Positions 3,266 to 26,797 of a stretch of DNA of 64,000 bases are shown one piece after another. A program made the position numbers and the translations under genes. This DNA comes from a virus (taxonomy: Duplodnaviria; Caudoviricetes), in IMG/VR virus record IMGVR_UViG_3300009180_000041, positions 984-64,983 of that record; one strand, written 5' to 3'. The notes beneath the pieces were generated by a model. It was not told the DNA's origin. It worked only from the letters and a program-made list of their open reading frames with translations, and ran no database searches. The stretch's first letter is position 1. Each line of letters opens with the position of its first letter.

Positions 3266-3297
3266 ATAAGTTATATTATAGTATAAAATAAAAAGAT

Positions 3298-4632
3298 ATG
3301 AGTATAAATACACAACAAGACGTAGCGAAAGCAGGAAGAACATTAATGTTAAAAGAACCATTTTATGGTTATTTCTTAGTAGGACTAAATAAAGACTTTA
3401 ATACAGCTGTACAAACAGCATGTGTAGCTAAAGATGGAATTAATATTAAATTAGTAGTTAATCCAGATTACTATGATAAACAAGATATTAATACTAAAGT
3501 AGCGATTTTGAAACATGAATTACTACATATTGCCTTTGAACACTTAGGAATGTTTGATCGGTTTAAAGACAAACAACTACTAAATGTAGCTGCTGATTTA
3601 GAAATTAATCAGTTTATTGAAGATCATTGGAAAGGTGAGACATGGGAAGGATTAGAAATTGTAAATGGTGAGTTTAAAGGTGTTAAGTTACCACCTAAAG
3701 CAGGTACTAGAGTGTATTATGATTTACTACAAACTGAACTTGATGAATATGATAAACAACAACAAGGTCAAGGACAAGGTCAAGGACAAGGTGGTGGTGG
3801 ACAAGGTGAAGGTGAAGGAGAAGGTGATGGAAATGGAAGTGGAAGTGGTACTGGTGAAGGTGAAGGTCAAGGACAAGGTGGTGGTGGAAGTGAATCATTT
3901 GCTGAATGGTTTAGAGGACAGGGACACGCTGATGAACATTCATTGTGGGAAGAATTTGAAAATATGTCTGAAGCAGAAAAGAAACTGATTAAGAAACAAA
4001 TCGATCACCAAATGAAAGAAGTAGCTGAACAAGTACAACGTTCAAGAGGAACAATACCTGGTGAATTAAGTAGTTATATTGATAAGTTGTTTGAAAAGAC
4101 TGAAAGTGTTATTGATTGGAAGTCATATCTAAGACGTTTTGGAGCTAGAGCGAGTAAGATTGAGACTAAAAAGACTCGTAAAAAACCAAATATTCGTTTT
4201 GGTTCAGGTCCAGCTATTAAAATTAATCCTAAACGTAAAACATTAGTAGCTATTGATACATCAGGTAGTGTTAGTGATAATGATTTAGTTGAGTTCTTTA
4301 ATGAAATTGAACATATTTTTAAATCAGGTACTGAAGTAACTATTATGGAGTGTGATTCTTATGTACATAGAACATATGAATACAACGGATTAAAAGAAGA
4401 AGCTCTAAGGGTTCAAGGTCGTGGAGGAACAAGTATGGACCCAGTAATGGAAGAAATATTTAAAACACCCGGTAAATATCAAAATTTAATTTATTTAACT
4501 GATCTTTATGTTCCGCCTCCAGTTAGAACACCATTAATTCCAATGTTATTTGTTGTTTGTAGTAATGGAACAACTGCTAATAGTGAGAATTTTCCAGGTA
4601 CTGTTATTCAAATCAAAAATAACAATAAATAA
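3298..4632 (+). CDS. metallopeptidase-like plus VWA domain protein (DUF2201-type MoxR partner)
   Basis: HELLH zincin motif, Gly/Gln/Glu low-complexity linker, MIDAS DTSGS, GRGGT and YLTD. Confidence 0.9.
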   Translation: MSINTQQDVAKAGRTLMLKEPFYGYFLVGLNKDFNTAVQTACVAKDGINIKLVVNPDYYDKQDINTKVAILKHELLHIAFEHLGMFDRFKDKQLLNVAADLEINQFIEDHWKGETWEGLEIVNGEFKGVKLPPKAGTRVYYDLLQTELDEYDKQQQGQGQGQGQGGGGQGEGEGEGDGNGSGSGTGEGEGQGQGGGGSESFAEWFRGQGHADEHSLWEEFENMSEAEKKLIKKQIDHQMKEVAEQVQRSRGTIPGELSSYIDKLFEKTESVIDWKSYLRRFGARASKIETKKTRKKPNIRFGSGPAIKINPKRKTLVAIDTSGSVSDNDLVEFFNEIEHIFKSGTEVTIMECDSYVHRTYEYNGLKEEALRVQGRGGTSMDPVMEEIFKTPGKYQNLIYLTDLYVPPPVRTPLIPMLFVVCSNGTTANSENFPGTVIQIKNNNK

Positions 4633-4644
4633 TATTTATATAAG

Positions 4645-5388
4645 ATGATTGGCATATATAAAATAACATCACCAAGCGGTAAGGTATATATAGGCCAATC
4701 TCTTGATATTAATGAAAGAAAAAAACATTACATAAACATAAACGCTGTTAAAAAGCAAGTAAAAATATTTAACTCATTAAACAAATATGGATGGGATAAA
4801 CATAATTTTGAAATAATTGAAGAATGTAGTGTTGAATTATTAGACGAAAGAGAAACACACTGGAAGCAGTACTATTTAGATCAAATAGATGGTGATTGGA
4901 ATAAAGTATTATTTTTAGGTTTATATGATAGTGGTGGAGGACCTAGAGAACAACATACTAAAGATAAAATGTCTGTAGGTATAAAAAAAGCTAAACAATC
5001 AATGACTGATGAACGAAGACAAGAAATAAGTAATAACATCAGTATTGGTCACGCTAGTATGACCAAAGAAGAAAAAGAACAATGGGGTACTAAAATAAGT
5101 GAAAGTCATAGTAATATGAATGAAGAAGCAAAACAAGAATGGGGAAATAAAATAAAAGAAAAGAAAATAGGACATATGTGTTATAAAGACCCAGAACGTG
5201 GAAAGAAAATAGGAGACAAAAATAGTATACCAGTACAACAGTATGATATTAATGGTAAATTTATTAAAGAATGGCCATCAGGAGCAGAAGCTTCTAGACA
5301 AACAGGAACAAACCATGGTGGAATCAGTATGTGTTTAAAAGGACAATTAAAATCAGCTAATAAATTTATTTGGAAATACAAACAATAA
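4645..5388 (+). CDS. free-standing GIY-YIG homing endonuclease with NUMOD-type DNA-binding domains
   Basis: MIGIYKITSPSGKVYIGQS at the N-terminus. NUMOD1-like C-terminus VQQYDINGKFIKEWPSGAEASR...FIWKY. Confidence 0.9.
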   Translation: MIGIYKITSPSGKVYIGQSLDINERKKHYININAVKKQVKIFNSLNKYGWDKHNFEIIEECSVELLDERETHWKQYYLDQIDGDWNKVLFLGLYDSGGGPREQHTKDKMSVGIKKAKQSMTDERRQEISNNISIGHASMTKEEKEQWGTKISESHSNMNEEAKQEWGNKIKEKKIGHMCYKDPERGKKIGDKNSIPVQQYDINGKFIKEWPSGAEASRQTGTNHGGISMCLKGQLKSANKFIWKYKQ

Positions 5389-5761: not shown

Positions 5762-5959
5762 TGAAATTAAATGGTCAATTAAGCAAATGGTTCCTCAACT
5801 GTAAGGATGAGGAACTGTTTATGCTTGAATCAATGTCTAAAGGAGCACTGGGTCGAGTATGTTATATGTTGTCTTTAGAACAACAACTTTTATTAGAAAA
5901 AAGTAAAAAGAATAAGACATCTTCTAAAAATTAAGTTATATTATATTAAATAAAAAGTT

Positions 5960-6688
5960 ATGAACTTAGAAAATAATCTAAACGAGTTAGAACAAATACT
6001 TAATGATAAGTACATTGATATTATTAATAAACAACAATCAATTATGAACATTTGTTTACAACAGTTTGTTGAAAGTATTAAATGGGATGGGCCTAAACTT
6101 GAAGCTAAGATGATTAATGAAGACAGAAGATTAGAAATATTCTATTATAGTGACGACTCATATCTAAATAAAAATAGTTTAATAAATATAAATTTAGATT
6201 GGACTACTTTTAAAATAAAACAAATTAAACCAGCATTTGTTTACAATGAAAGTTATGAAGTAAATAATTTTGTTGAATTTAGACATGTTATATATAAATT
6301 AATGTATTATATTCAAAGTATATTAGATGAAGGTTTTATTAATATAAACACTATATTTAAACCTGTAATTGACACTCATATAAATGAATATAATAGTTAC
6401 TTAGAAATGAAAAAACTAGGTACCATGTTTAGAAATGGATATAATGGTTATAAACACCAATTGAAATTGGATGAAGTATTTCATAAAGGTGAAGCATATA
6501 ATAAAAATGGTAGAGACATACCACACAATGAAAAGGGTTGGGTTTATGTAGATAAAATTCAAATGTATAAAAATCCATCAGGAACATATGTTGTAACAGC
6601 TTATTTTGGTGATGAATTAAAAGCAACATATACTCGTATGAGTGAAGTAACATTAGAACAAACAATAAGAAATTTTATGTTTAATTAA
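5960..6688 (+). CDS. hypothetical protein
   Basis: Long ORF after the promoter at 5935. Confidence 0.75.
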   Translation: MNLENNLNELEQILNDKYIDIINKQQSIMNICLQQFVESIKWDGPKLEAKMINEDRRLEIFYYSDDSYLNKNSLININLDWTTFKIKQIKPAFVYNESYEVNNFVEFRHVIYKLMYYIQSILDEGFININTIFKPVIDTHINEYNSYLEMKKLGTMFRNGYNGYKHQLKLDEVFHKGEAYNKNGRDIPHNEKGWVYVDKIQMYKNPSGTYVVTAYFGDELKATYTRMSEVTLEQTIRNFMFN

Positions 6689-6742
6689 AAAAAAATAGAT
6701 TATTTTAAGATTTTAAGTTATATTATATAAGATAAAAAGATT

Positions 6743-7750
6743 ATGAAAATAGAAAAATATTACAGAATGGTAAGACAAGGATGGTCTAACAACATGACTT
6801 GGTCATTAGGAACAACTAGTTGGACCACAAATGATTTTATTGATGAAACTGATGTTAATAAAATTAAAACATTTATTAGTAGTATTAAAGATACTATGCC
6901 TACTTTAAAACCAAAAACAAATATATTAATTGATAAAAATAGTGACATACCTAGAAATAAACTAAAAGAATTTATTAATGATAATAACTTGAAAAAGGTT
7001 ACATTACTAAGTAAAGCTGATGTTATTATTGTTCGTCGTGAAACTATTAAAATGATGTTGAATTGGGAAGTAAAAACACTCAATAAAGTAGATAATAGTG
7101 ATGTTAAATCAATTAATAATGATATGGATGGTATGAATGTTTGGTTGTATCCAAATAATACTCAAGACACTGGATACCAAAATGTATTAAATAATTGTAC
7201 TGAAGTAAAAGGTTGGATGGTTGATGGTTATAGAAATAAAAAACAAAATGAGTCATTAGAATTTATTTATTCATTAATAGGTACTAAAGCTACTTTAGTT
7301 TATGATGATATAGCAGTTGGTACATTAAATAAAGATGGTTTGGATTTAGATGAAGACATTTATGATACATTACAAGGAATGATGTTAGCTAAAGACACAG
7401 CTACATTTAATTTAGGTATTGAAATGTTAAGTAATATTAATGTTGAAAATAACTTATTTAAAATTAGTTTATTAATGAATGAAACATTTAATAAAACAAG
7501 TAGATTCAATGCTATGTCACAGTATTCTAATAAGAATTTTAAAGCGTTACTAACATATCTAAGTGCTAATAAAATTAGATGGAATCAAAGTTGGGAAGTA
7601 TTTGGAATGAGTATGTATAGTAAGTTTAAATCAAGTGAACATGAAGTGTTTATTAAAAAGTATTTAATTAGTAATATTAATGATCGATTTAAAAAATTAA
7701 ATAACAATGATACAATTGAAATTTTAGATCTTGTTTTTAAAGAAGATTAA
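6743..7750 (+). CDS. hypothetical protein in the MoxR/VWA cluster (weak BRCT-like segment)
   Basis: Long ORF with its own promoter. IPRNKLKEF...KADVIIV segment. Confidence 0.7.
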   Translation: MKIEKYYRMVRQGWSNNMTWSLGTTSWTTNDFIDETDVNKIKTFISSIKDTMPTLKPKTNILIDKNSDIPRNKLKEFINDNNLKKVTLLSKADVIIVRRETIKMMLNWEVKTLNKVDNSDVKSINNDMDGMNVWLYPNNTQDTGYQNVLNNCTEVKGWMVDGYRNKKQNESLEFIYSLIGTKATLVYDDIAVGTLNKDGLDLDEDIYDTLQGMMLAKDTATFNLGIEMLSNINVENNLFKISLLMNETFNKTSRFNAMSQYSNKNFKALLTYLSANKIRWNQSWEVFGMSMYSKFKSSEHEVFIKKYLISNINDRFKKLNNNDTIEILDLVFKED

Positions 7751-7815
7751 AAAAATTAGAGTTTTAAAGTAAAAAAAGTTATATTATAGTATAAAATAAG
7801 ATAAAAATAAAAGAT

Positions 7816-8988: not shown

Positions 8989-9000
8989 TAATTAATAAAC

Positions 9001-9043
9001 ACCATCAGCTCCTAACTAACAAGTTAGGGGCTTTTGGTAGTGA
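9001..9043 (+). terminator. stem-loop / probable terminator, copy 1
   Basis: Inner stem CCTAACT/AGTTAGG, followed by GGCTTTT, inside an outer ACCA/TGGT pairing. Confidence 0.6.
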
Positions 9044-9050
9044 AAATACT

Positions 9051-9281
9051 ATGACACAAGAAATTTTAGATACAATGAATGAGATATTAGATAATTTAAA
9101 ATCTATCTCAAATGAATTAGACGCGGTACAGTTTGACAGTTCAGTTAGTGATGATGTTATTGAAGACATAGACAATCAAGTAACACTTCCACTTGAAAAC
9201 ATTATCGACTCATTAGAAACTATGTTAATATCAATTGATAAATTTGATGATATTAATTACTATACTGACGAGGACAATTAA
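9051..9281 (+). CDS. small acidic hypothetical protein
   Basis: D/E-rich 76 aa ORF. Confidence 0.65.
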   Translation: MTQEILDTMNEILDNLKSISNELDAVQFDSSVSDDVIEDIDNQVTLPLENIIDSLETMLISIDKFDDINYYTDEDN

Positions 9282-9305
9282 GCTTTTATTTTTTATCTTT
9301 TATAT

Positions 9306-9349
9306 CTGCCACTGCTTGTAACTAATAAGTTACGGGCTTTTGGCGGTGA
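9306..9349 (+). terminator. stem-loop / probable terminator, copy 2
   Basis: GTAACT/AGTTAC stem plus GGGCTTTT, with outer GCCA/TGGC pairing. Confidence 0.6.
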
Positions 9350-9495
9350 CTGATTCCTACATTATTAGGTTAGTTTTTAAATTATTTTTTATCTTTTTAT
9401 TTAACTCTAAGGCCAGATTATTCTGGCCATTTGAGTTGAAAAGTTTTTAAATTTGTTTGTCTTTTTAAGAAAAAAACGTTATATTATATTATAAA

Positions 9496-10248
9496 ATGAT
9501 AAAAGAAAAAAGTAGTTTTGATTTGTACTTAAAAGAATTAAGTCGTATTCCAAAAATGAATACTCAACGTGAGTTAGAAATTAAAAAACTAATTAATGAT
9601 GATACTGTTGATGAATCAGTTAAAGATGAACTGAAAAAAGAAATAGTAACAGGTCATTTACGATTTGTAATCCAACAGGCTAAAAGATTTATTGGAAGTG
9701 GAATTGAATTTGAAGACTTAATTGCTGAAGGTAATGATGGACTATTAAGTGCTATTGAGTCATTTGATTGGAAACGAGGAACTAAATTTAATACACATGC
9801 TATTTATTGGATCAGAGCTAAAATTTACAATGCTATTAATAATAATAGTAGAGTTATTAGATTGCCTCATAATATTTCTCAACAATTAAGTAAAGAAATT
9901 ATTAAACGAAGAGAAAAAAACATAGAAATGTCTGATGAAATGACTAATTTACCCACTACAACTGATTTATTTAGACCAATAGGTGAAGACAGTACATTAT
10001 TAGATGTTATTAATAATGATAGAGCTGAATTAGCTGATTCACAAGCAATTTATAATTCAACTGTTGAGTATTTACTCAGTAAATTAAATGATAGAGACAA
10101 AAATATTGTTAAATTACTATATGGAATTGAAGGCAAACAATTAAATATGGATGAAATAGCTGAAGAATATGATATGAATAAGGAAAGTATTAGGTTAATT
10201 AAGAACCGTTCACTCAAGAAAATGGAAAAATGTTTAACATTAAATTAA
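9496..10248 (+). CDS. sigma-70 family RNA polymerase sigma factor
   Basis: Region 1.2 FDLYLKEL, region 2 HLRFV...EDLIAEGNDGL...FDWKRGTKFNTHAIYWIR, RVIRLP, and region 4 HTH EIAEEYDMNKESIR. Confidence 0.93.
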   Translation: MIKEKSSFDLYLKELSRIPKMNTQRELEIKKLINDDTVDESVKDELKKEIVTGHLRFVIQQAKRFIGSGIEFEDLIAEGNDGLLSAIESFDWKRGTKFNTHAIYWIRAKIYNAINNNSRVIRLPHNISQQLSKEIIKRREKNIEMSDEMTNLPTTTDLFRPIGEDSTLLDVINNDRAELADSQAIYNSTVEYLLSKLNDRDKNIVKLLYGIEGKQLNMDEIAEEYDMNKESIRLIKNRSLKKMEKCLTLN

Positions 10249-10560
10249 TAAACAATAAAGAATTTATGAGTTGGGATGATGAATATATATTTGATGGTGA
10301 AAGATGGGTACCAATTAAAGAATATCAAGAAATTTTAGAACTAATGATTGAAGATGACACAACCACATAGAATAACTGATAATTCAGCAGTACAACAATC
10401 AACTGAGGGCCGAATTGAATACAATAAACAACCTAAAATTAAATACACTAAACATATAATTGATGGTAAAGATTGGGCCAACTTTTTACATGAAACACTT
10501 TTAAAAAATATTTATGATATAAAAGATTGATTTTTTTAGAAAAATCTGTTATATTATAGT

Positions 10561-10701
10561 ATGAAAAATGAGATAAAAAATAATAGACACAGTCAGGAAC
10601 AACGTCATATGATGCAACTCATTAGACGTAATATGACACAGAAAGTAAAAGGAAGTAAAAAGGTATATAATAGAAAAAATAATAAAGGTTATGAAGGGTA
10701 A
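10561..10701 (+). CDS. basic 46 aa peptide, apparently leaderless
   Basis: ATG directly follows GTTATATTATAGT. Contains KGSKKVYNRK. Below the track length cutoff. Confidence 0.6.
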   Translation: MKNEIKNNRHSQEQRHMMQLIRRNMTQKVKGSKKVYNRKNNKGYEG

Positions 10702-10891
10702 AAAATTAGATAATTTTGATGTAGAACAAATTAAAGAATTAATTAAAGTTCTAAAAAACGCTGGTGTAGACGCTGATAAAGCAGCTAAAACATACAGTAA
10801 TGATAATGTAAGTAAATTAGCATTTGAAGTAGGTTATTTGAATGGTTATTGTAAAACAGCTTCTGATATATTAGAAGAAATATTAAAATAA
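10691..10891 (+). CDS. hypothetical protein
   Basis: ORF with AFEVGYLNG motif. Confidence 0.65.
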   Translation: MKGKKLDNFDVEQIKELIKVLKNAGVDADKAAKTYSNDNVSKLAFEVGYLNGYCKTASDILEEILK

Positions 10892-10895
10892 AAAT

Positions 10896-10991
10896 ATGAA
10901 AAAGATAGTAAATTCAAGTTATGGTTTAGGTATTACAATGTTATTTGTAATATCAGTTGTGTCACTAGTATTAACAGTGTGTTTTAATTAA
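10896..10991 (+). CDS. 31 aa single-TM peptide
   Basis: Translated by hand, hydrophobic, tightly packed in the operon. Confidence 0.5.
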   Translation: MKKIVNSSYGLGITMLFVISVVSLVLTVCFN

Positions 10992-10992
10992 T

Positions 10993-11112
10993 ATGGATAA
11001 GTTAAATAAAGTATTATACACAGTTGCTGTTGGTTTAGGAATTGGAATCACAGCATTAGTATCAGCAGTAGTAATTATGTGGGGTTTTATTCAATTAGCA
11101 AAATTAATATAA
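10993..11112 (+). CDS. 39 aa single-TM peptide
   Basis: Translated by hand, hydrophobic, tightly packed in the operon. Confidence 0.55.
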   Translation: MDKLNKVLYTVAVGLGIGITALVSAVVIMWGFIQLAKLI

Positions 11113-11113
11113 T

Positions 11114-11374
11114 ATGGCAAGTATATATTTAAGACAAGACATAGACATTGATGTAGATGAATTTATGGAATCATGTTGTAGTTATGAAATTGATGATGTA
11201 ATTGATTGGTTAGAAGTAAATGGTCATTTACCAGAAACTGTTCATATTAGTGAAGATAAGAAAAACTTGATGGACATAGAATGGGACAAAGCAATTACTA
11301 AACTTCATTCAAATAGAACTCAATTAACTGTAGCTGAAGAAGAATTTATCAAGACTATAGCTAATAGATTGTAA
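11114..11374 (+). CDS. acidic hypothetical protein
   Basis: Its TAA overlaps (TAATG) the first micro-ORF of the array. Confidence 0.7.
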   Translation: MASIYLRQDIDIDVDEFMESCCSYEIDDVIDWLEVNGHLPETVHISEDKKNLMDIEWDKAITKLHSNRTQLTVAEEEFIKTIANRL

Positions 11375-12461
11375 TGACTTGGTCACAAATATCAACATAC
11401 AAAAACATGGAGTATATATCACATGGTTTTTTGAAATTTAAGTATTTTAATAGAAATAGTTTAGGTGAATGGTTTGATATATGATAAGTAAAAGAACAAT
11501 ACAACATTATGCTCGTGACGAGTTCACAAATTGGTATTTTTTTAAATACACAATTCATGAACCACATGAGTTAGCAATATGGTTTGATATATGATAAGTA
11601 ACTCTCGTATAAATTGGATAGCAGGTGAAAATAGACACAGTGTGGGTGTAATAAATCGGGTATTTAGTACTTACAAAACACAACACTTATATTATTCATT
11701 TCAAACAAATACTAAACATATTGTAAATGATATGATAATGTATTTAGACTTATGATAGATGAAATTAAAATACGGTGGATATCAGGTGATTATCACCACA
11801 GTGTATACGCTATAAATAAAGAATTTAGTTTATATAGTAAACAATTAAAATCAAACCCCGTAAATGTAAAGTGGTTTTTGTATGAATTAACAGATTATTT
11901 AGACTTATGATACACAGGACTGATATTGAATATATGGCTTATACTAATTATAGAATTCATTGCATACAATCAGTTGGTTCTTACACTAAACACATCAACT
12001 TATTAGATTATTTAGACTTATGATGGAATACAGTAAAATATATGATATGGCTTATGTGAAATACACACCTACCACAATTTATAGATGTTTTAATGATAAG
12101 TGGTATAGTGGAATTTATGAAGTAAGAAATGTTGTAATGTGTAATTATTTTTATTTATGATGGAATATAGTAAAATTGAAGATATGACTAAAATTAAATA
12201 TGAGTTATATGTAATGTATGACCATTTTGCTTTTTATCCAGTTCAAGTTAGAATATCAGTATTAGCAAATTATTTAAACTTATGATGATAAAAAAACATG
12301 ATTGGACATTAGATGATGTTATGGGAGACTATGTTGATTATGCATATATAGAAATGTATTTTTTATATGTGGATTTTCATAGAAATGATATGTTTTATGG
12401 ATCATCACCAAATATAAATGAAGATTTATTTAAGTTTTTAGATTTAGATGTAGTAAATTAA
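11374..12461 (+). repeat. tandem array of 8 paralogous, ATGA-coupled micro-ORFs (36-59 aa)
   Basis: ORFs at 11374-11484, 11481-11594, 11591-11755, 11752-11910, 11907-12023, 12020-12160, 12157-12285 and 12282-12461. Junction repeats TATTTAGACTTATGAT and TGGTTTGATATATGATAAGTAA. Confidence 0.85.
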
Positions 12462-12514
12462 AAAAGATTTGATTTTTAATAAAAAATTTGTTATATTATA
12501 TAAGATAAAAAGTT

Positions 12515-12922
12515 ATGAAAATAGAAAATTTAACACAAGACGAAGTGACACAGTTACAAACACTTTTAAATAAACTAAACCCAGTTGAAGTAAAATCAAT
12601 TGATCCACTAGTAACAATGGTTGATGACATTTTGAATGAATTTGATTTTGAAAAGGTACATGATACTATGGTGGCATTAGATTGGAAATGGTATAGTACA
12701 CATCCTTCTGTTCCAAGTATTAGAGACTTAAAAGACACAGCTAGACACTTACTGATTAGTGTTTACAACTTAAGAAAAAACGAATATCAAGACACACTTC
12801 CAGAAGTACCTGTTCAAGTTGCAACTGGTGGATTCAGAGCAATAGCATTATCAAATGATAGTGGTGAAGTTGATTTTTTAAAGTTAGAGTTTGTTGTAAG
12901 TGAGTGGGAGGCGGGAGTATGA
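12515..12922 (+). CDS. phage hypothetical protein
   Basis: FDFEKVHDTMVALDWKW...ATGGF, with its own promoter. Confidence 0.75.
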   Translation: MKIENLTQDEVTQLQTLLNKLNPVEVKSIDPLVTMVDDILNEFDFEKVHDTMVALDWKWYSTHPSVPSIRDLKDTARHLLISVYNLRKNEYQDTLPEVPVQVATGGFRAIALSNDSGEVDFLKLEFVVSEWEAGV

Positions 12923-13188
12923 TAGGAGCTATAATATTTTTAACAGTAATAATATTGTTTTTCATAAATGTAGTGTTTCATGATGCTTGTGATGAAGAGG
13001 GAATTAAAGGAATATTTACAGTTTGTACATTACTGTTAGTTTTATTTACATTTATTCTTGGTTTTGATTTAGCAGAAACTGAATATAAAACGATTGAAAC
13101 TAAAACACAATTAAAACCAACAATGAGAATTGTGTGTAAAGACACAATTTGTGACACAACATACATTTATACACGAATAGAAAAATAA
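12919..13188 (+). CDS. small membrane protein
   Basis: Two hydrophobic segments, ATGA overlap with the upstream gene, DTTYIY end. Confidence 0.65.
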   Translation: MIGAIIFLTVIILFFINVVFHDACDEEGIKGIFTVCTLLLVLFTFILGFDLAETEYKTIETKTQLKPTMRIVCKDTICDTTYIYTRIEK

Positions 13189-13195
13189 GAAAAAT

Positions 13196-13603
13196 ATGAG
13201 TAACATGGCATCAATTTATTGGTTGACACGATTGTCAAGCATTCAAGGAATGTTTGCAGCAGCATCAGTTATCACAGGATTAATTATAGGTATTGGAATT
13301 ATAGGTTATTCTATATCAATATTTGATTGTTATAATGATGAACGAGAAAAAGAACTAAAAACTAAAAGAAAGTATTTCATAAACAGAGTATGGATACCAG
13401 TTTTATTATTAGTATTTACTATATTAATACCTAATACTAAAGAAGCAATGTTGATTATCGCAGGTGGTAAAACAATGGACTATGTACAAAAAGACACTTC
13501 ATTACATAAAATTCCATACAAAACAACTGAGTTGATTTTGAAGAAAATGGATGAGTACATTGATGAAACAGTAAAATCAAACATTAAAGACACAGCAAAA
13601 TAA
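13196..13603 (+). CDS. membrane protein
   Basis: IYWLTRL start and two TM segments. Confidence 0.7.
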   Translation: MSNMASIYWLTRLSSIQGMFAAASVITGLIIGIGIIGYSISIFDCYNDEREKELKTKRKYFINRVWIPVLLLVFTILIPNTKEAMLIIAGGKTMDYVQKDTSLHKIPYKTTELILKKMDEYIDETVKSNIKDTAK

Positions 13604-13909
13604 TATGGACAATTTAGAACAAAACGCTTCATTTTTTATGGAAAAAGGTGAAAAAGCATTTAATGAAAAGGTAAATGGAATGATGAAAGTAACTATGACA
13701 CCAACAGAAAAAATAATGTGGATAAATGGTTATCTTAATGGATTGTTAGATGGTAAAAAAGAAAAAGTAGAAAATGAGTAACGACAGTTTTAAAAAATCA
13801 CCAATCCACGACAAGAAAGCAATTATTGACATGATGGATGAATTAGAACCTGGAGACATGGTTGAAGTTGTGGAATTGATTAAAATAAAATTAAAACAAC
13901 AAAAATAAT

Positions 13910-14092
13910 ATGAAAAACTTAATAAAAATAAAATTAGTAAAAATCGCTTTAATCACACTAATAACATTAGTATTTTTAATCTCACTATTACCACAATTTA
14001 GTCCAATAGTAAACATAATTAGAATGTTAGTTGGAAGTTGTACAATTGGGTGGTTAATAGGTACTTTATGTATGACAATTTGGCATAAGTAA
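13910..14092 (+). CDS. small two-TM membrane protein
   Basis: Hydrophobic ORF. Confidence 0.55.
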   Translation: MKNLIKIKLVKIALITLITLVFLISLLPQFSPIVNIIRMLVGSCTIGWLIGTLCMTIWHK

Positions 14093-14146
14093 AAAAAGAT
14101 TTGACTTTTTAAATAAAAAATGTTATATTATAGTAAATAAAAAGAT

Positions 14147-15262
14147 ATGGAAAATAATAATAGTGTTTGTTTTGTGGCTCGTATTAATGAGATTAAGTCT
14201 ATTGAAGGCGCTGATAACATTGAGTTAGGTGTTATTGGTGGCTGGAATTGTATTATTAAGAAAGACAGTTATAAAGTAGATGATTTAGTTGTAGTAGCCA
14301 CTACTGACGCTGTTATACCTCAAGAATTAAGTGATAAAATGAATGTTACTAATTACTTGAGAAAAGGTCAGAGAGTAAGAACAGTTAAATTAAGAGGAGT
14401 TTATAGTGAGTGTTTGATTATTCCAATTGGTTTTATACCTGACAAATACCGTTATGAAGGAGCTGATTGTATGGAGTTAATGAATATCTTTAAATACGAG
14501 CCGCCAGTAAGACAAGTACAATTAGCTTCAGGTCGTAAACTTAAATACAATCAAAATCCAAACTTTGGAATCTACTATAAATTTCCTAACATCAAGAATG
14601 TTAATGGGATGTTTAATGAAGAAGACACAGTTGAAGTAACTAGAAAGATTCATGGTACTAATGCTCGTTATGGTATTGTTAGGAAAAACAAATTAAGTGT
14701 TTGGGACAAAGTAAGACGTTTCTTTGGAGACAAATGGGTTGAATATGAATATGTGTATGGTTCTCATAATGTTGAGAAAGGTAGTGATTCACAAGGTTTC
14801 TATGATACTGATGTTTGGAGAACAATAGCTGAAAAACACAACATTAGAGAAAAGTTATGGAATTTCTTTAAATTAACTAAAACTTTATATAATACTAAAG
14901 ATGGTATTGTGATTTATGGAGAAATTTATGGCCCAGGTATTCAAAAGAATTATGATTATGGTTTGACAGAACTTGAATATGCTGGATTTGATGTTACTAT
15001 TAATGGTGAATACCAAAGAACTTCTTTAAGTAATGTGGTTCATGAATGGTTAGGACTTAAAAACGTACCTAGTTTAGAATTTAATGTTTGGTCTGAAGAT
15101 TTACTTACTAAGTATACTTTTGACAAAATTGAAGGAACTAAAGTACCTCACGAAGGTGTTGTTATTAAAAGTGTTGACGGTAATAGACATAAAGTAGCTA
15201 AAGTAATTAATCCAGATTATTTGATCTACGGAGAAAAACACAATGTAGGAGATTCACATTAA
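14147..15262 (+). CDS. ATP-dependent RNA ligase, DRB0094/Rnl5-like, with N-terminal OB (tRNA-binding-like) domain
   Basis: Ligase motifs KIHGTN, GEIYG, FDV, EGVVIK and AKVI. N-terminal IEGADNIE...KLRGVYSECL. Confidence 0.9.
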   Translation: MENNNSVCFVARINEIKSIEGADNIELGVIGGWNCIIKKDSYKVDDLVVVATTDAVIPQELSDKMNVTNYLRKGQRVRTVKLRGVYSECLIIPIGFIPDKYRYEGADCMELMNIFKYEPPVRQVQLASGRKLKYNQNPNFGIYYKFPNIKNVNGMFNEEDTVEVTRKIHGTNARYGIVRKNKLSVWDKVRRFFGDKWVEYEYVYGSHNVEKGSDSQGFYDTDVWRTIAEKHNIREKLWNFFKLTKTLYNTKDGIVIYGEIYGPGIQKNYDYGLTELEYAGFDVTINGEYQRTSLSNVVHEWLGLKNVPSLEFNVWSEDLLTKYTFDKIEGTKVPHEGVVIKSVDGNRHKVAKVINPDYLIYGEKHNVGDSH

Positions 15263-17511: not shown

Positions 17512-17561
17512 ATTTTTTTAATAAAAAAGGTTATATTATATTATATAAAAAGATATAAGAT

Positions 17562-19933: not shown

Positions 19934-20251
19934 ATGAAAAATTTAGAAATTAGAAAACCAGGAAGACCAATTGTTGAAAACAGTAAAAGACAATTAGAAT
20001 TAAAAAGTAAAGAAGAATTAAGAAGTTTAGGTTTAATTAAAAAAGGAAGACCAATTAAAGAAGACTCTAAAAGACAAAATGAGTTAAAAAGAAAAGAAGA
20101 ATTAAGAAGTAAAGGTTTATTAAATGGTAAAAAAGGAAGACCAATTAATTTAAATAGTAAAAAACAATTAGAATTTAAAAGAAAAGAAGAATTAAGAAGT
20201 AAAGGTTTATTAAAATTAGGTAGACCAAAAGTTAATAAAGAAGAGGTTTAA
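19934..20251 (+). CDS. multi-AT-hook-like basic repeat protein
   Basis: Four GRP motifs with repeated NSK(R/K)Q.E..RKEELRS.GLL. Paralog of 23101. Confidence 0.8.
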   Translation: MKNLEIRKPGRPIVENSKRQLELKSKEELRSLGLIKKGRPIKEDSKRQNELKRKEELRSKGLLNGKKGRPINLNSKKQLEFKRKEELRSKGLLKLGRPKVNKEEV

Positions 20252-20265
20252 ATAACCTCTTTTTT
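20241..20265 (+). terminator. intrinsic terminator
   Basis: AAGAGGTT-TAAAT-AACCTCTT followed by a T run. Confidence 0.75.
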
Positions 20266-20327
20266 AATTTTTTAGAGTGTTGGTGTTAAATAAGTTATAT
20301 TATATTATATAAAAAGATAAAAAAATT

Positions 20328-20624
20328 ATGAATAAAAAAAGACAAGTTGTAAGTAAGAAAGTTAGAGAGTATGTTAGACAAATTATGAATAATAGAAATA
20401 TTGATGTAATTGGTATGGAAAAATTGAGAAAAGAATTTAAAAGTAGTAATTGTAAAGTATTATTAGAATTAGATAATGAGTATAGAAAGACTTGTATTTA
20501 TAGAAATGGAGATGTAATGTATAATAGTTTTTATAGTTATAATGATAGGTTTTATAAGTTATTAAGAGATGGTGGGGTTTATATGACTATAATTGGAAAT
20601 AAGATGGTTATTTGTTTAGAATAA
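20328..20624 (+). CDS. basic hypothetical protein, paralog of 16320..16634
   Basis: YNDRFYKLLRDGG. Confidence 0.75.
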   Translation: MNKKRQVVSKKVREYVRQIMNNRNIDVIGMEKLRKEFKSSNCKVLLELDNEYRKTCIYRNGDVMYNSFYSYNDRFYKLLRDGGVYMTIIGNKMVICLE

Positions 20625-20644
20625 CCATTTTTTGTTATATTTAT

Positions 20645-20915
20645 CACCGCACACTATTACACACAGTGGTTAGTTAAGACAGGCCTTTGAGCAAGTCCAA
20701 CGTTAGTACACAGCTGAGGCACCGTAACACGTTACACAATGAGTAAATTAGTGAGCAAATTGATTCGACGTTCTGACATTAGTAGCTTGATGCATTAGGC
20801 AGATGATAGCATATCTAGTTGCTCGACACTTAATTGTGTTCGGGCTTTCCTTGACTTTGATTCCTATGTTGATTACCTGTGTACTCAGTACACTGTTCAC
20901 AGCATGGGAAAGTGT
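20645..20915 (+). ncRNA. candidate structured non-coding RNA
   Basis: GC-richer island with no long ORF after a promoter-like GTTATATTTAT. Long-range pairs AGTACACAG/CTGTGTACT and GAGCAA/TTGCTC, plus local hairpins. Confidence 0.45.
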
Positions 20916-20959
20916 TTAGATAAATTTGATAAAACTAGTAAAACTTGTTATATTATAGT

Positions 20960-21142
20960 ATGTTAAATAAAGATATGAAAATAGGTACTAAAGTAAAAGC
21001 AGGTATTAATTTACCATTACAAAATATTGGTTATAGTATTGAGTATTTTGATTGTGAAATTGTTAAAATAAATAAAGTTACTTGTTTAGTAAAATTTGAA
21101 AATGGTAGTGTTAAGAAAGTAATGAAGAATTTAATAAAGTAA
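20960..21142 (+). CDS. small beta-rich hypothetical protein, apparently leaderless
   Basis: KIGTKVKA N-terminus shared with the next gene. Confidence 0.6.
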   Translation: MLNKDMKIGTKVKAGINLPLQNIGYSIEYFDCEIVKINKVTCLVKFENGSVKKVMKNLIK

Positions 21143-21155
21143 GTTATATTATAGT

Positions 21156-21434
21156 ATGATAAAAGATATTAAAATAGGTACTAAATTAAAAGCAGTTAAA
21201 GACGTTTATTATGTTTCAAAAGATACGTTTTATGAAGACTGGTATACACAAGAAGAAATAATGAAATGTGTAAATAAGATGATTACAGTAGGTGATGTGT
21301 ATGAGTTTGTTATTGATGATTTTGTTAATGAAGAATGGGAATGTATTGAAGGTAGTATGTTAGGTGAGTTTAGTGATGGTTATTTTGAAATGGCTAGTAT
21401 GATAAAAAAAGGAGTATTTGAAGTAGTAGAATAA
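21156..21434 (+). CDS. hypothetical protein, apparently leaderless
   Basis: ATG 13 nt after the promoter core. Ends VFEVVE. Confidence 0.7.
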   Translation: MIKDIKIGTKLKAVKDVYYVSKDTFYEDWYTQEEIMKCVNKMITVGDVYEFVIDDFVNEEWECIEGSMLGEFSDGYFEMASMIKKGVFEVVE

Positions 21435-21460
21435 GTTGGAGTAATAGGTTATATTATAGT

Positions 21461-21694
21461 ATGATAAAAAATAATTATAATTTAGTAAAAGAAGTTATTG
21501 AAAGTTTAGAAAGTACTAGTATTTTAAATACTTTTTTAAGTACTTTTAAAGTAGGTAAAAATATAAAAAAGAAAGATTATATTGAGTTTTTATGGAAATA
21601 TATTGATGATGGTAGTGAAATGTATTATGTTGAATTAAATTGGAAATATATTAAGAGTGGTGGTGATGAAAGTGTATTTGAAGTAGTAGATTAA
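21461..21694 (+). CDS. hypothetical protein, apparently leaderless
   Basis: ATG 13 nt after the promoter core. Ends VFEVVD. Confidence 0.65.
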   Translation: MIKNNYNLVKEVIESLESTSILNTFLSTFKVGKNIKKKDYIEFLWKYIDDGSEMYYVELNWKYIKSGGDESVFEVVD

Positions 21695-21720
21695 GTTAGG
21701 TAAATAAGTTATATTATAGT

Positions 21721-21996
21721 ATGTTAAATAAGGTTTTAGATTTAAAAAATAAATTTGATTTTTTCATTTATAGTTTAATTGAAAATAGAGAAAATGGTGA
21801 TTGGGATACTTATGAAGATGGAGAAATTATAGAGTATATTTGGGATTTGAGAGATGAAAGTTGGTTTGATTTAGATTTTAGTTTTAATAGTTTAAGTGAG
21901 TATATTGGTGAGGGAATATGTTATAGTGATGGTTATAGTGTAGAATTAAAAGATTATAAAATGATTGTTGAGATTGTTTATAAAGAATTAGATTAA
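21721..21996 (+). CDS. acidic hypothetical protein, paralog of 17986..18249
   Basis: Clear end-to-end similarity to 17986. Confidence 0.8.
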   Translation: MLNKVLDLKNKFDFFIYSLIENRENGDWDTYEDGEIIEYIWDLRDESWFDLDFSFNSLSEYIGEGICYSDGYSVELKDYKMIVEIVYKELD

Positions 21997-22034
21997 GTTA
22001 GTAAAGTAAGTTATATTATATAAGATAAAAAGTT

Positions 22035-22292
22035 ATGATAGTAAGTATAAAAGATACAATGTGTGACATTAAAACGTTCAATAGTACAAAATACATAAGT
22101 GAAAAAGATGTATTTAGAATAATTAACCGTAAGGTGAGAACAAAGAGGGGCAAAACAATGTCTAAAGAAAAAGTAGCTGATTATGAAAGTCAAGGTTTGA
22201 GATTACATAATGAAATGTACTATGTATTACTATTAGATTTTGATGATTGTTATCACAATAATATGTTAAAAACTGTCAATTACGAGGACTGA
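22035..22292 (+). CDS. hypothetical protein
   Basis: Own promoter at 22010. Confidence 0.6.
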   Translation: MIVSIKDTMCDIKTFNSTKYISEKDVFRIINRKVRTKRGKTMSKEKVADYESQGLRLHNEMYYVLLLDFDDCYHNNMLKTVNYED

Positions 22293-22413
22293 TGTTATAT
22301 TATAGTATGATGTATGTATTTGGAATCGTAGAATTAGTTATTATGGTATTAATATACCGTAATGTAGTTAAAACACTTAATCGTAGTAAGAACACTTACA
22401 TTAAGTAATATAT

Positions 22414-22521
22414 AGTCAGGTGGCGGAATGGAGCGTGGTGTCCACGCTCGTGGTAGACGCTATACTTAAGCAGTTGAAGCTGGGTAATTCAACAATATAG
22501 GTTCGAGTCCTATCCTGATTA
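22414..22521 (+). tRNA. tRNA-like RNA / aberrant class II (Leu-type) tRNA with a hairpin inserted in the D loop
   Basis: Acceptor AGTCAGG/CCTGATT, D arm GCGGAATG...GGTAGACGC, T arm ATAGG-TTCGAGT-CCTAT. Insert GAGCGTGG-TGT-CCACGCTC. A CTTAA remnant lacks a paired anticodon stem. Confidence 0.65.
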
Positions 22522-22524
22522 CAA

Positions 22525-22899
22525 ATGAAACAATGTAAAAAATGTGGTACAAATAAACCACTAACTGAGTATGGTAATAAAACAGATGAATCAGATGGTT
22601 TACACCTATATTGCAAGATATGTGTGAATGGAGAATATGATTCTACTAAATATAAAAAATATAAACTGAATAAACACTATGGCATTACACCTGAACAATA
22701 TGATAATATGTTAACTGATCAACAGGGAAAATGTGCCGTATGTGGGGATATAATGACTCAACCACATGTTGACCATTGCCATACTACAGGTAAGGTACGA
22801 GGCTTATTATGCATAAACTGCAATCAAGGCTTAGGCAAGTTCAAAGACGACACTAATAAACTCCAGCATGCAATTGATTATCTAAACAAATTTAGTTAG
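22525..22899 (+). CDS. endonuclease VII-like HNH endonuclease
   Basis: YGITPEQY, CAVC, HVDHCHTTGKVRGLLCINCNQGLGKFKD. Confidence 0.92.
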   Translation: MKQCKKCGTNKPLTEYGNKTDESDGLHLYCKICVNGEYDSTKYKKYKLNKHYGITPEQYDNMLTDQQGKCAVCGDIMTQPHVDHCHTTGKVRGLLCINCNQGLGKFKDDTNKLQHAIDYLNKFS

Positions 22900-25293: not shown

Positions 25294-25848
25294 ATGATTA
25301 AACTTACAAACATATTAAATCAAATTAATGAAAGTAAACAAGTAGGTAATTTATATCATTTTACTTATGATAGTTCTATACTTAATATACTTAAAAATGG
25401 TTTACGGTTTGCTCCAGATAATACAGAATTAGATAAATATAAAGATACATTTTATATATCTACTACAAGAGACTACACAGGACATAAGTTTTATAATGAA
25501 TTGGAAGCTAAAGTTAGAATTACATTAGATGGTAATAAAATTTCAGAAAGATATTTAATAAGACCTATTAGTGTAGAAAATATATGGGTAAAAAATAGTG
25601 GTTTAGATTGGAATAAATCACCTGTTAAAGATGTATTTTATGAAGAAAGAATATTTTCATCAAAAGGAGGATATTTAGATCCAAAATATATAATTAAAAT
25701 AGATACTACTATTACTGAAGAGGAAATAAAAAGAGGAATTAATTGGGGTAAAGAAGACAGTAATAGAATAACATATTTTGATAATAGTATACTCGATTAT
25801 ATTAATAGTGGTAAATTAAATTTTGTTAAAAATTTCAATGTAAAATGA
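25294..25848 (+). CDS. putative ADP-ribosyltransferase-fold protein with MIKL leader
   Basis: Likely start ATG 25294. LYHFT..SILNILKNGL, ISTTR and YEER match the ART-fold strand pattern. Confidence 0.6.
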   Translation: MIKLTNILNQINESKQVGNLYHFTYDSSILNILKNGLRFAPDNTELDKYKDTFYISTTRDYTGHKFYNELEAKVRITLDGNKISERYLIRPISVENIWVKNSGLDWNKSPVKDVFYEERIFSSKGGYLDPKYIIKIDTTITEEEIKRGINWGKEDSNRITYFDNSILDYINSGKLNFVKNFNVK

Positions 25849-26483
25849 TTAAACTTACAAACATATTAAACCAAATTCTTCTTGAAGAAAAAACTAAACG
25901 TGACAGGTGTCTTAGGATAGCTGATCGTAAGTTTGACAAACCATCAGCATATAAGTCTGGGGCTGTGGTTAGATGTCGTAGAGGTAAAATATGGAAAGAC
26001 TTAAAAGAAGATACTAGAAATTATATTAATTGGAATGAAAATTATGGTAAAACTTTTAAAATAGTTAATACACCTGAAGGAGCACAATCTGGAGGTGAAT
26101 GGAATCCTAATTTAGTTTCAATTGTAACACCAGAAAATAAAAATACTTGGAGTAATTGGAAGGAAGTTTCTCAAGATATTTTAAATAATTTTAAAAAAAA
26201 TTGGGATGAAATTCAAAAATCTTTAGGAGACCATAAATACAACCAAATAATTAAAAGTCAACAATTAAACGAAGACGAAAGTCTTCATAAATGGTTCAAA
26301 CGTCGAGGCCCTAAAGGTAAAGAAACCGGTTGGGTAGATTGTAACGCACCCGATGGAAAAGGAGGTTATAAGTCTTGTGGTAGAAAAAAAGGTGAGACAC
26401 GTAGTAAGTATCCTGCTTGTAGACCTACTCCTAGTGGTTGTAAAAGAAAAGGTAAAGGTAAAACTTGGGGCAAAACAAAATGA
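25845..26483 (+). CDS. late multi-segment protein with MIKL leader
   Basis: Basic Cys-containing segments separated by LEE, LKE and LNE. Confidence 0.75.
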   Translation: MIKLTNILNQILLEEKTKRDRCLRIADRKFDKPSAYKSGAVVRCRRGKIWKDLKEDTRNYINWNENYGKTFKIVNTPEGAQSGGEWNPNLVSIVTPENKNTWSNWKEVSQDILNNFKKNWDEIQKSLGDHKYNQIIKSQQLNEDESLHKWFKRRGPKGKETGWVDCNAPDGKGGYKSCGRKKGETRSKYPACRPTPSGCKRKGKGKTWGKTK

Positions 26484-26797
26484 TAAAATTAACTCAACTA
26501 CTAACTGAAGCAAAACAATCTATTGAAAATTTTGCTAGTACTAGATTAAAAGGTGCTGAAAAAATTGCTGATACTACCTTAAAAGCAGGTGGATTATCAT
26601 TATTAACTTATAAACACTATAAAGTTAAATTACCCTATTATAAAAAAGCAGCAGCTAATAAATTAGATAAAGAAACTGCTAAAAAAGAATTTGAAGAAAC
26701 TTTAAAAAGTATTTCCTTAGGTATGACTCAAAGCCAATTTCAAATTGAAATGGGACGTTTAGAAGTATTAGGAGAATTATTAATAGAAGAAAAATAA
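26480..26797 (+). CDS. late protein with MIKL leader
   Basis: MIKLTQLLTE, ATGA overlap with the upstream gene. Confidence 0.75.
   Translation: MIKLTQLLTEAKQSIENFASTRLKGAEKIADTTLKAGGLSLLTYKHYKVKLPYYKKAAANKLDKETAKKEFEETLKSISLGMTQSQFQIEMGRLEVLGELLIEEK

Follow-up and report, generated by a model that had tools for sequence, protein, structure and literature searches.

What occupies an apparent intergenic gap of 1.1 kb in the genome of an uncultured, AT-rich freshwater phage, and why is the gap divided at similar intervals by the same short motif? We analysed a window of 64,000 nucleotides (nt), comprising bases 984–64983 of the 64,983-base virus record IMGVR_UViG_3300009180_000041 (completeness rating 39%, guanine-cytosine (GC) content 24–34%), in which the plus strand at window positions 11374–12461 is tiled by eight open reading frames (ORFs) of 36, 37, 54, 52, 38, 46, 42 and 59 amino acids (aa), here called units 1–8, that are joined by seven consecutive ATGA overlaps. 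Our reading, to which we assign a probability of about 0.7, is that this array forms the distal part of an early polycistronic operon and encodes a clade-specific family of micro-proteins, which would be translated by a reinitiation relay and whose junctions would recombine. A check of coordinates and translations found the tiling, the overlaps and the C-termini (Table 1) exactly as given in a preliminary description of this DNA, which had seen only the sequence; its portrayal of the genes as hidden does not hold, however, since gene callers already record the units as 'hypothetical protein'. Beyond that description, unit 1 is itself coupled to the preceding 86-aa gene via a TAATG overlap. When the region was shuffled 3000 times with preservation of dinucleotides, the longest coupled chain reached 0 (622 shuffles), 1 (2347) or 2 (31) members, compared to 8 in the real region, and only one other chain of at least three ATGA-coupled ORFs, made up of three larger genes at 25294–26797, occurs on either strand of the window. 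The region's other two plus-strand frames contain 34 and 37 stops, and the three opposite-strand frames contain 23–31.

The nearest complete relative of the array, locus L018, was found via the 86-aa and 135-aa proteins that flank it, and is situated at the end of G001, a record of 179,715 bases with a completeness rating of 100%. Between the same two flanking genes, L018 carries 16 units of 36–59 aa, with tails reading YLDL, YLDI, WFDI, YLYL, LLDL or DWDL, and its 15 junctions consist of 13 ATGA overlaps, a TAATG and an overlap of 14 nt. The 86-aa protein is 64% identical in the two phages and stands directly 5' of the array in both. Clear L018 orthologues exist for window units 1, 3, 6, 7 and 8, and the other units differ between the two phages, so that unit number as well as content varies between relatives (8 versus 16), a difference for which the preliminary description had proposed to look. 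Units 12 and 13 of L018 represent a duplicated unit 8, and three further units follow the unit-8 orthologue. The first of these begins 14 nt inside the end of that orthologue (L018 7077–7090), in the DLDVVN extension and with no ATGA, which suggests that an ancestral ATGA junction once followed FLDL immediately and that its loss gave rise to the extension.

Comparison of the two arrays speaks for translation of the units. Five orthologous pairs, aligned over 235 codons, differ by 143 substitutions, none of which creates a stop codon; placing the same substitutions at random gave 10.7 stops on average, and not one of 5000 simulations was free of stops. Yet the pooled ratio of nonsynonymous to synonymous differences (pN/pS) is 0.81 in the units and 0.14 in the first part of the 135-aa gene, with pS equal in both (0.24), and substitutions in the units are spread flatly over the three codon positions (53/46/44). 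Because stops are lacking while pN/pS is high and codon positions are flat, the frames are kept open by selection with residues barely constrained. Changes per column within orthologue groups are likewise near Poisson (variance/mean 0.67–1.35). Length differences within these groups are of whole codons (50/52/53, 42/43 and 57/59 aa), and in contigs of an independent sequencing run (X3), which served for the comparison of strains, the small insertions and deletions inside the array consist of one +1 and one −1, six bases apart. The in-frame length changes and the lack of internal stops by which the preliminary description had wished to separate coding from non-coding repeats are thus both present, including an 18-nt difference in a swapped unit 5, and its picture of a tandemly expanded, fast-diverging family agrees with 8 versus 16 units and a pN/pS of 0.81 reached without a stop.

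The units resemble each other weakly but consistently. Most paralogues are 9–33% identical to unit 1 (the exception being its 92%-identical orthologue), yet the pattern of the termini is kept, with a family consensus that begins M-M-x4-I-x2-M, has an aromatic residue at about position 15 and ends L-x2-Y-L-D-L. Ile7 of units 2–7, the pattern common to units 3 and 4 and the start common to units 6 and 7, all of which had been pointed out before, are present. After removal of the first two and last six residues, the paralogue cores still score above shuffled sequences (z 4.8 in the window and 5.1 in L018, equalled in 0 of 300 shuffles each), and because of this core likeness (z ~5) the units are to be seen as a single family that has diverged, and not as invariant termini enclosing random sequence. 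The 'hypervariable middles' of the preliminary description therefore need to be divided: they apply between paralogues, whereas within orthologue groups the middle third is the most variable part in only two of seven. In composition, Tyr reaches 11.4% compared to 5.1% in large ORFs, Gly, Pro, Ala, Thr and Gln are depleted, and Cys stands at 0.6%. Unit 8 and its paralogue have the tail alone in common with the other units; the unit-8 alignment (A3, 11 sequences with 15 invariant columns) represents the best-conserved orthologue group, and hhalign matches it to alignment A4 over 10 tail columns only, at a probability of 0.7%. A relation of the unit-8 family to the 86-aa protein was also considered, and hhalign found none.

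At the DNA level, repetition is restricted to the junctions, whose consensus is TAT TTA GAC TTA TGA and which recur as repeats of 15–23 nt spaced by 107–161 nt. Junction repeats had been proposed from the start and are real, comprising a perfect 23-nt pair (11469–11491 and 11579–11601) and a 32-nt family of four copies with 72–100% identity. Of the accompanying proposal of a repeat-spacer array, the recurring junctions stand; the unit bodies form no tandem repeat, and Tandem Repeats Finder detects none of unit length because the bodies are too diverged. In the X3 contigs, one joint leads from 11469 to 11580 and skips 110 nt, exactly unit 2, with 22 letters common to both sides at the 23-nt repeat. 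In another rearrangement, 112 different letters stand between two junctions in place of the 94-nt body of unit 5 (11913–12006), which adds 18 nt (six codons); in a third, the sequence jumps back from 12452 to 12278, so that unit 8 is present twice. Aligned rows of the window and L018 show similarity beginning or ending at the junction for units 1/2, 5/6 and 9/10. Unit deletion, swap and duplication at junctions in X3 agree with the earlier suggestion of recombination points, and the junction works as a recombination site. A further joint, from 11588 to 12468 in runs X6 and X7, was disregarded, as only 21 letters lay on its shorter side.

The junction seems to be constrained both as nucleotides and as protein. 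GAC accounts for 18% of Asp codons in large ORFs, yet the junction Asp codon is GAC, and in 14 of 22 junctions the base at −3 of the following start is C (p 1e-8 versus base composition; 3e-5 versus a rate of 0.22). This nucleotide conservation could reflect a preferred hand-over context or homogenisation by recombination. The amino-acid tail is also kept with other codons where no cistron follows, as in L018 unit 16 (GAT TGG GAC CTT TAA) and in the internal FLDL of unit 8, and within the window the tail pattern is found in 6 of 129 plus-strand ORFs, each of which is an array unit, and in none of the 76 minus-strand ORFs. Since the pattern survives a change of codons and is confined to array units, constraint at both levels is likely.

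How the units might be translated is suggested by their start contexts. Among the 51 genes of at least 100 aa in the window, an SD (Shine–Dalgarno)-like core is found in 5 and A at −3 in 32, and the A fraction over −15 to −1 is 0.53. Because there are essentially no SD sites and A is preferred at −3, the host likely belongs to an SD-independent lineage. SD-less, A-rich starts matching those of this phage are described for Bacteroidetes (PMC6847099). The promoter-like sites of the phage look sigma-70-like and not Bacteroidetes-type. At the array junctions, A is present at −3 in 1 of 22 and the A fraction is 0.33–0.35; the mean start-context score is about −0.4 in the window and 0.0 in L018, compared to 2.8 for genes and −3.5 for all ATGs, and the 86-aa gene scores 4.8, the best in the operon. 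As the internal starts have neither an SD site nor the usual A-rich context, the units are most likely translated by a termination–reinitiation relay, predicted to be entered at the 86-aa gene. In a study of such overlaps (PMC6728339), 13 of the 14 ATGA pairs tested showed strict coupling, and initiation as well as reinitiation in Bacteroidetes is described as independent of SD sites. Elsewhere in the window, 9 of 50 consecutive pairs among the same 51 genes overlap by one base.

We propose the following model. The family would have originated by tandem duplication followed by deep divergence. Ribosomes would load at the 86-aa gene, which has a normal A-rich start context, and termination–reinitiation at each ATGA would pass them from cistron to cistron, so that a stop arising in one unit would cut off the expression of every later unit. 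This alone would account for strong selection for open frames despite near-neutral residues. The 15–23-nt junction would have two jobs, serving as the reinitiation site and as a homology patch for unequal recombination by which units are added, removed or swapped. A single early transcript is predicted from about 10555 to about 12465; inside 11374–12461 there is no terminator-like site, and folding revealed no RNA structure in the array (z-score +0.53).

Table 1. Features of the micro-protein array, its surroundings and related repeats (window positions unless a locus is named).
Feature	Position	Strand	Remarks
Promoter-like site (TTGATT, 17 nt, TG-extended TATATT)	10527..10555	+	directly 5' of the operon's first small ORF; putative operon start
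Four tightly packed small ORFs (46, 66, 31, 39 aa)	10561..11112	+	context, outside the family; last two hydrophobic, membrane-like
86-aa acidic protein	11114..11374	+	stop overlaps unit 1 start; likely relay entry cistron
Unit 1, 36 aa, tail WFDI	11374..11484	+	L018 orthologue 92% identical
Unit 2, 37 aa, tail WFDI	11481..11594	+	paralogue of unit 1; orthologue P0021; absent from L018 and one X3 contig
Unit 3, 54 aa, tail YLDL	11591..11755	+	orthologous to L018 unit 2; database orthologues P0002, P0006, P0008, P0014, P0034
Unit 4, 52 aa, tail YLDL	11752..11910	+	paralogue of unit 3; orthologues P0004, P0010, P0013, P0018, P0023 (50–53 aa)
Unit 5, 38 aa, tail YLDL	11907..12023	+	body swapped in another strain
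Unit 6, 46 aa, tail YFYL	12020..12160	+	L018 unit 10 orthologous, 74% aa identity
Unit 7, 42 aa, tail YLNL	12157..12285	+	paralogue of unit 6; L018 unit 11 orthologous, 64% identity
Unit 8, 59 aa, end FLDLDVVN	12282..12461	+	last cistron; only tail common to other units
Stop-start junction, consensus type, example	11741..11756	+	from sequence comparison of junctions
Further junctions	11469–11484, 11579–11594, 11896–11911, 12009–12024, 12146–12161, 12271–12286	+	
Promoter-like site with conserved 19-nt early-gene motif	12469..12512	+	just 3' of the array; the following transcription unit (135-aa gene at 12515) would begin here
TATTATATAARATAAAAAG motif sites	691–709, 3277–3295, 5939–5957, 6721–6739, 7790–7808	+	
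TATTATATAARATAAAAAG motif sites	12494–12512 (exact), 14126–14144, 17534–17552, 20298–20316, 22014–22032	+	
GGAGTTTAG/TTTAGACATATGA repeat contigs	L104, L107, L110, L120–L122, L124, L103, L118		Prevotellaceae metagenome-assembled genomes

When the unit alignment was run against a word index of 5.8 billion proteins, 33 matches were obtained among 63 candidates, and exhaustive HMMER comparison with 1.84 billion cluster representatives yielded 13 at an expectation (E) value of at most 0.001; all database matches are unnamed or 'hypothetical' proteins of 37–59 aa, each of them an orthologue of some unit. Altogether, 66 family sequences fall into 18 unit types at an identity of at least 45%. A hidden Markov model (HMM) of alignment A4, run over the ORFs of 102 loci, found arrays only in the phage's own genome and the L018 contig, together with two marginal matches (E ~0.005), so that the profile search proposed in the preliminary description recovered the L018 array and otherwise clade orthologues only. 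DNA searches gave the same distribution: a two-junction pattern occurs in five stretches of IMG/VR viral contigs, of which only the L018 contig holds an array; a single junction 15-mer matches 64 IMG/VR stretches, with multiple matches in the L018 contig alone; and the 22 two-junction stretches among 185,579 species genomes contain no HMM match. Scans of metagenome contigs with unit 8 and alignment A3 confirmed no locus. The family profile has no match in G002–G005 (completeness 100%, 34%, 96% and 68%), the array is absent by inspection from L002, which encodes a distant relative of the 135-aa protein, and the distant relatives that lack the array include two rated 100% complete and one rated 96%. 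From these searches, the family appears to be confined to a narrow phage clade. A nucleotide search with 10500–13600 matched no cultured phage, and tblastn of the AAA ATPase gave distant matches only (26–34% identity); there is therefore no close cultured relative. No comparable array was found described in the open-access texts searched.

Two further observations were made in the course of these searches. L002 possesses an ATGA-coupled chain of its own (6436–7278) 3' of the 135-aa homologue, including two paralogues of 83 aa that share an N-terminus and their last nine residues, and tandem stop-start-coupled paralogues thus seem to recur in this phage group with unrelated families. Separately, a dispersed repeat of GGAGTTTAG-like units ending in TTTAGACATATGA was noted in many contigs of two rumen Prevotellaceae metagenome-assembled genomes; this was rejected as a further array, being a chance match to the pattern with no match to the unit profile.

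Several points weigh against the proposed model. Residue-level selection is weak by all three measures given above (pN/pS, codon positions and column counts), and individual proteins may matter little. Database orthologues are intact by construction, since broken copies go unlisted, and the count of in-frame length differences is biased to that extent; full arrays are available as DNA from two phages only. The constant tail, for which the preliminary description had supposed a docking role, is conserved in its nucleotides too, and its constancy may thus benefit the stop-start junction more than the protein. None of the eight units has a significant match in Pfam (best E 0.044), PHROGs (best E 0.11), NCBIfam or PADLOC (none at E ≤ 0.1 in the last two), nor did these libraries provide a link to a host target or defence system. 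AlphaFold2 produced no confident fold: unit 4, with 51 sequences, reached a predicted local distance difference test (pLDDT) score of 64.5 with three helices at low confidence, and unit 8, with 11 sequences, reached 48.6, both too poor for a fold search. In addition, profile searches of the PDB (E up to 10) returned one chance-level match only, the ESM Atlas held no usable match, and a complex prediction for two copies of unit 4, run without controls, scored 0.01. The idea of propeller-blade or WD40-like units, raised by the W/Y-x-D-L ending, was dropped, as no propeller chain was among the PDB matches at E up to 10.

As for what the products might do, which is the most speculative step of the model, we tentatively suggest, at somewhat less than even odds, that they are dispensable early host-interaction proteins involved in host takeover or counter-defence, with copy number and repertoire tracking host variation. 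Such a role would fit best because of their small size, early position, restriction to one clade and fast change with presence/absence variation. The C-terminus, with its aromatic-hydrophobic-acidic-aliphatic order, would then provide a contact or fold element common to the units. A further extension, which we regard as rather unlikely, would make the units modular cassettes at the protein level, the same junction serving hand-over and recombination, so that units could be exchanged between co-infecting phages while the rest of the array stays expressed. A phage population would then have in common 18 or more interchangeable cassettes of differing specificity, each directed at a variant of a host defence or target, a plug-and-play phage counterpart of the immune cassette arrays of the host.

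Among the alternatives, the one that survives best accepts the translated relay and assigns its products little function. The units would be spacers that carry ribosomes to unit 8 or shield the mRNA, or else peptides that act in bulk, with the common hydrophobic C-terminus occupying a host protease or chaperone and unit number tuning dose or output. The combination of a pN/pS of 0.81, flat codon positions and near-Poisson columns with an absence of stops fits this reading, and the lack of a confidently predicted fold, the nucleotide-level conservation of the junction and the better conservation of unit 8, the last unit in the window with 15 invariant columns in 11 sequences, are also in line with it. 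Deeply diverged paralogues, however, keep their N- and C-terminal pattern and have similar cores (z ~5), their composition is order-promoting (high Tyr, low Gly and Pro), and the three L018 units that lie beyond the unit-8 orthologue mean that unit 8 is not always the end point; we consider this alternative unlikely.

Stop-start coupling is commonly tied to the balanced production of complex subunits, and the shared termini of the units could form a common interface. That the array encodes the subunits of one hetero-oligomer, with coupling providing near-equal amounts of paralogous chains, nevertheless appears improbable, as close strains differ in how many units they carry and in which ones (8 versus 16, with loss and swap of single units), which a fixed assembly would hardly tolerate, and no sequence likeness to repeat proteins or to any solved structure was found. 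A library of precursors resembling ribosomally synthesised and post-translationally modified peptides (RiPPs), in which conserved recognition ends would frame a variable core, has its analogy in known precursor-peptide arrays and would account for the abundance of short paralogues whose ends are conserved and whose middles differ. We judge it very improbable, because Pfam and PHROGs scans of 10-plus neighbours identified no modifying enzyme (maturases beyond YcaO and radical SAM were not searched), G001 is without YcaO and has one radical SAM ORF some 73 kb from the array, and the units have neither Cys/Ser/Thr-rich cores nor an export signal. A non-coding repeat array of binding sites, iterons, recombination sites or CRISPR-like elements with incidental ORFs, despite the nucleotide-level conservation and spacing of its junction repeats, is close to refuted by frames that are open far beyond chance in two genomes and through 143 substitutions, by the many stops in the other five frames, by length changes in frame, and by repeats that are short and imperfect and lack RNA structure.

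Two other ideas about decoding were discarded. Programmed frameshifting that fuses the units does not agree with frames that each close 1–20 codons 5' of their ATG, nor with N-termini that are conserved from the Met onwards; an alternative genetic code does not agree with large ORFs that are all intact under table 11.

The surroundings of the array are those of an early region. Its neighbours, in the same Pfam and PHROGs scans, are early-type genes including a sigma-70-like factor, an AAA_5 ATPase, an RNA ligase and homing endonucleases. Roughly 6 kb 5' of the array, an HNH endonuclease-like gene (phrog_1314, 3298–4632) lies beside a gene for a GIY-YIG plus NUMOD1 homing endonuclease (4645–5388). 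A 19-nt motif, TATTATATAARATAAAAAG, has 13 matches in the window with up to three mismatches, compared to 1.7 expected; the sites are mostly 2–3 nt 5' of plus-strand start codons in the first 23 kb and overlap a TG-extended −10-like element, and the motif probably marks the early promoter and leader of the phage. There is no copy inside the array. The promoter-like site at 10527–10555 is closely similar to that at 12469–12497; a scan of 9000–14500 found promoter-like sites at chance level (42 versus 44.5 expected), so that single sites are to be read as putative. Two hydrophobic peptides (31/36 and 39/41 aa) encoded at 10896–10991 and 10993–11112 are conserved in L018 (4762..4872 and 4874..4999); the pair lies just 5' of the 86-aa gene in both phages, in the same operon as the array. 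GC skew peaks at 0.60 in 20001–22000, compared to 0.0–0.35 elsewhere, and 20251–22525 is without ORFs of at least 100 aa. No tRNA gene was found anywhere in the window.

The array can be placed beside four known kinds of system. The closest at the level of translation are ATGA stop-start pairs, which, in the work of Huber et al. 2019 (PMC6728339), have the same 4-nt overlap, a downstream cistron without initiation signals of its own and an SD-independent setting. All seven window junctions and all but two of those in L018 have this overlap. Most described cases, however, involve two genes or a short series of unrelated ones, whereas here 7 and 13 overlaps chain 8–16 members of one family, and the junction is a conserved repeat that reaches into both coding ends; coupling in the array is a prediction from sequence.

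At the level of the genome, the array recalls the hyperplastic regions of T4-type phages with their early promoter and stem-loop (PeSL) cassettes, which, according to Arbiol et al. 2010 (PMC2839356; see also PMC4122927), likewise contain small, non-essential early ORFs of unknown function that are inserted, deleted or replaced between close phages via short flanking repeats. Recombination between repeats is seen in the array too (loss of unit 2, swap of unit 5, duplication of unit 8, and 8 versus 16 units). PeSLs, as those texts present them, are intergenic cassettes of promoter and stem-loop terminator that separate unrelated ORFans, whereas here the repeat is a coding junction and the ORFs are paralogues; the array repeat contains no early promoter, given the chance-level scan and the absence of the 19-nt motif, and no stem-loop terminator, given the lack of a terminator-like site and of folding. 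Gene accordions at counter-defence genes of T4 and T6 (10.1101/2022.04.14.488369, PMC13096335) share with the array a tandem change in copy number of small early genes and a plausible arms-race setting. They consist of recent, near-identical multi-gene segments, in contrast to the old, single-gene copies of the array, which are mostly 9–33% identical to unit 1 and are phased by a stop-start overlap.

CRISPR (clustered regularly interspaced short palindromic repeats) arrays resemble the present array in their short conserved repeats, variable segments of roughly regular length and unit-wise gain and loss. Here, by contrast, repeats are 15–23 nt long and imperfect (apart from the one perfect 23-nt pair, the repeat families are 72–100% identical over 26–32 nt), the 'spacers' of about 95–165 nt are mutually homologous open frames, and the neighbour scans revealed no cas gene nearby.

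Taken together, the array is a new protein family and a variant of known phage genome plasticity, set apart by the length and regularity of its predicted stop-start relay. It shows how ORF length cut-offs can conceal a whole gene family and, should its products be host-directed, would be a compact source of new small effectors. If the relay operates as proposed, the array would provide a natural test bed for the reach of termination–reinitiation in an SD-independent system, and would show how dependence on upstream translation keeps weakly selected ORFs open. Compared to the systems above, it unites, with unusual purity and over as many as 16 cistrons, three known elements: the accessory ORFans of phages, coupling by stop-start overlap and the shuffling of genes by recombination.

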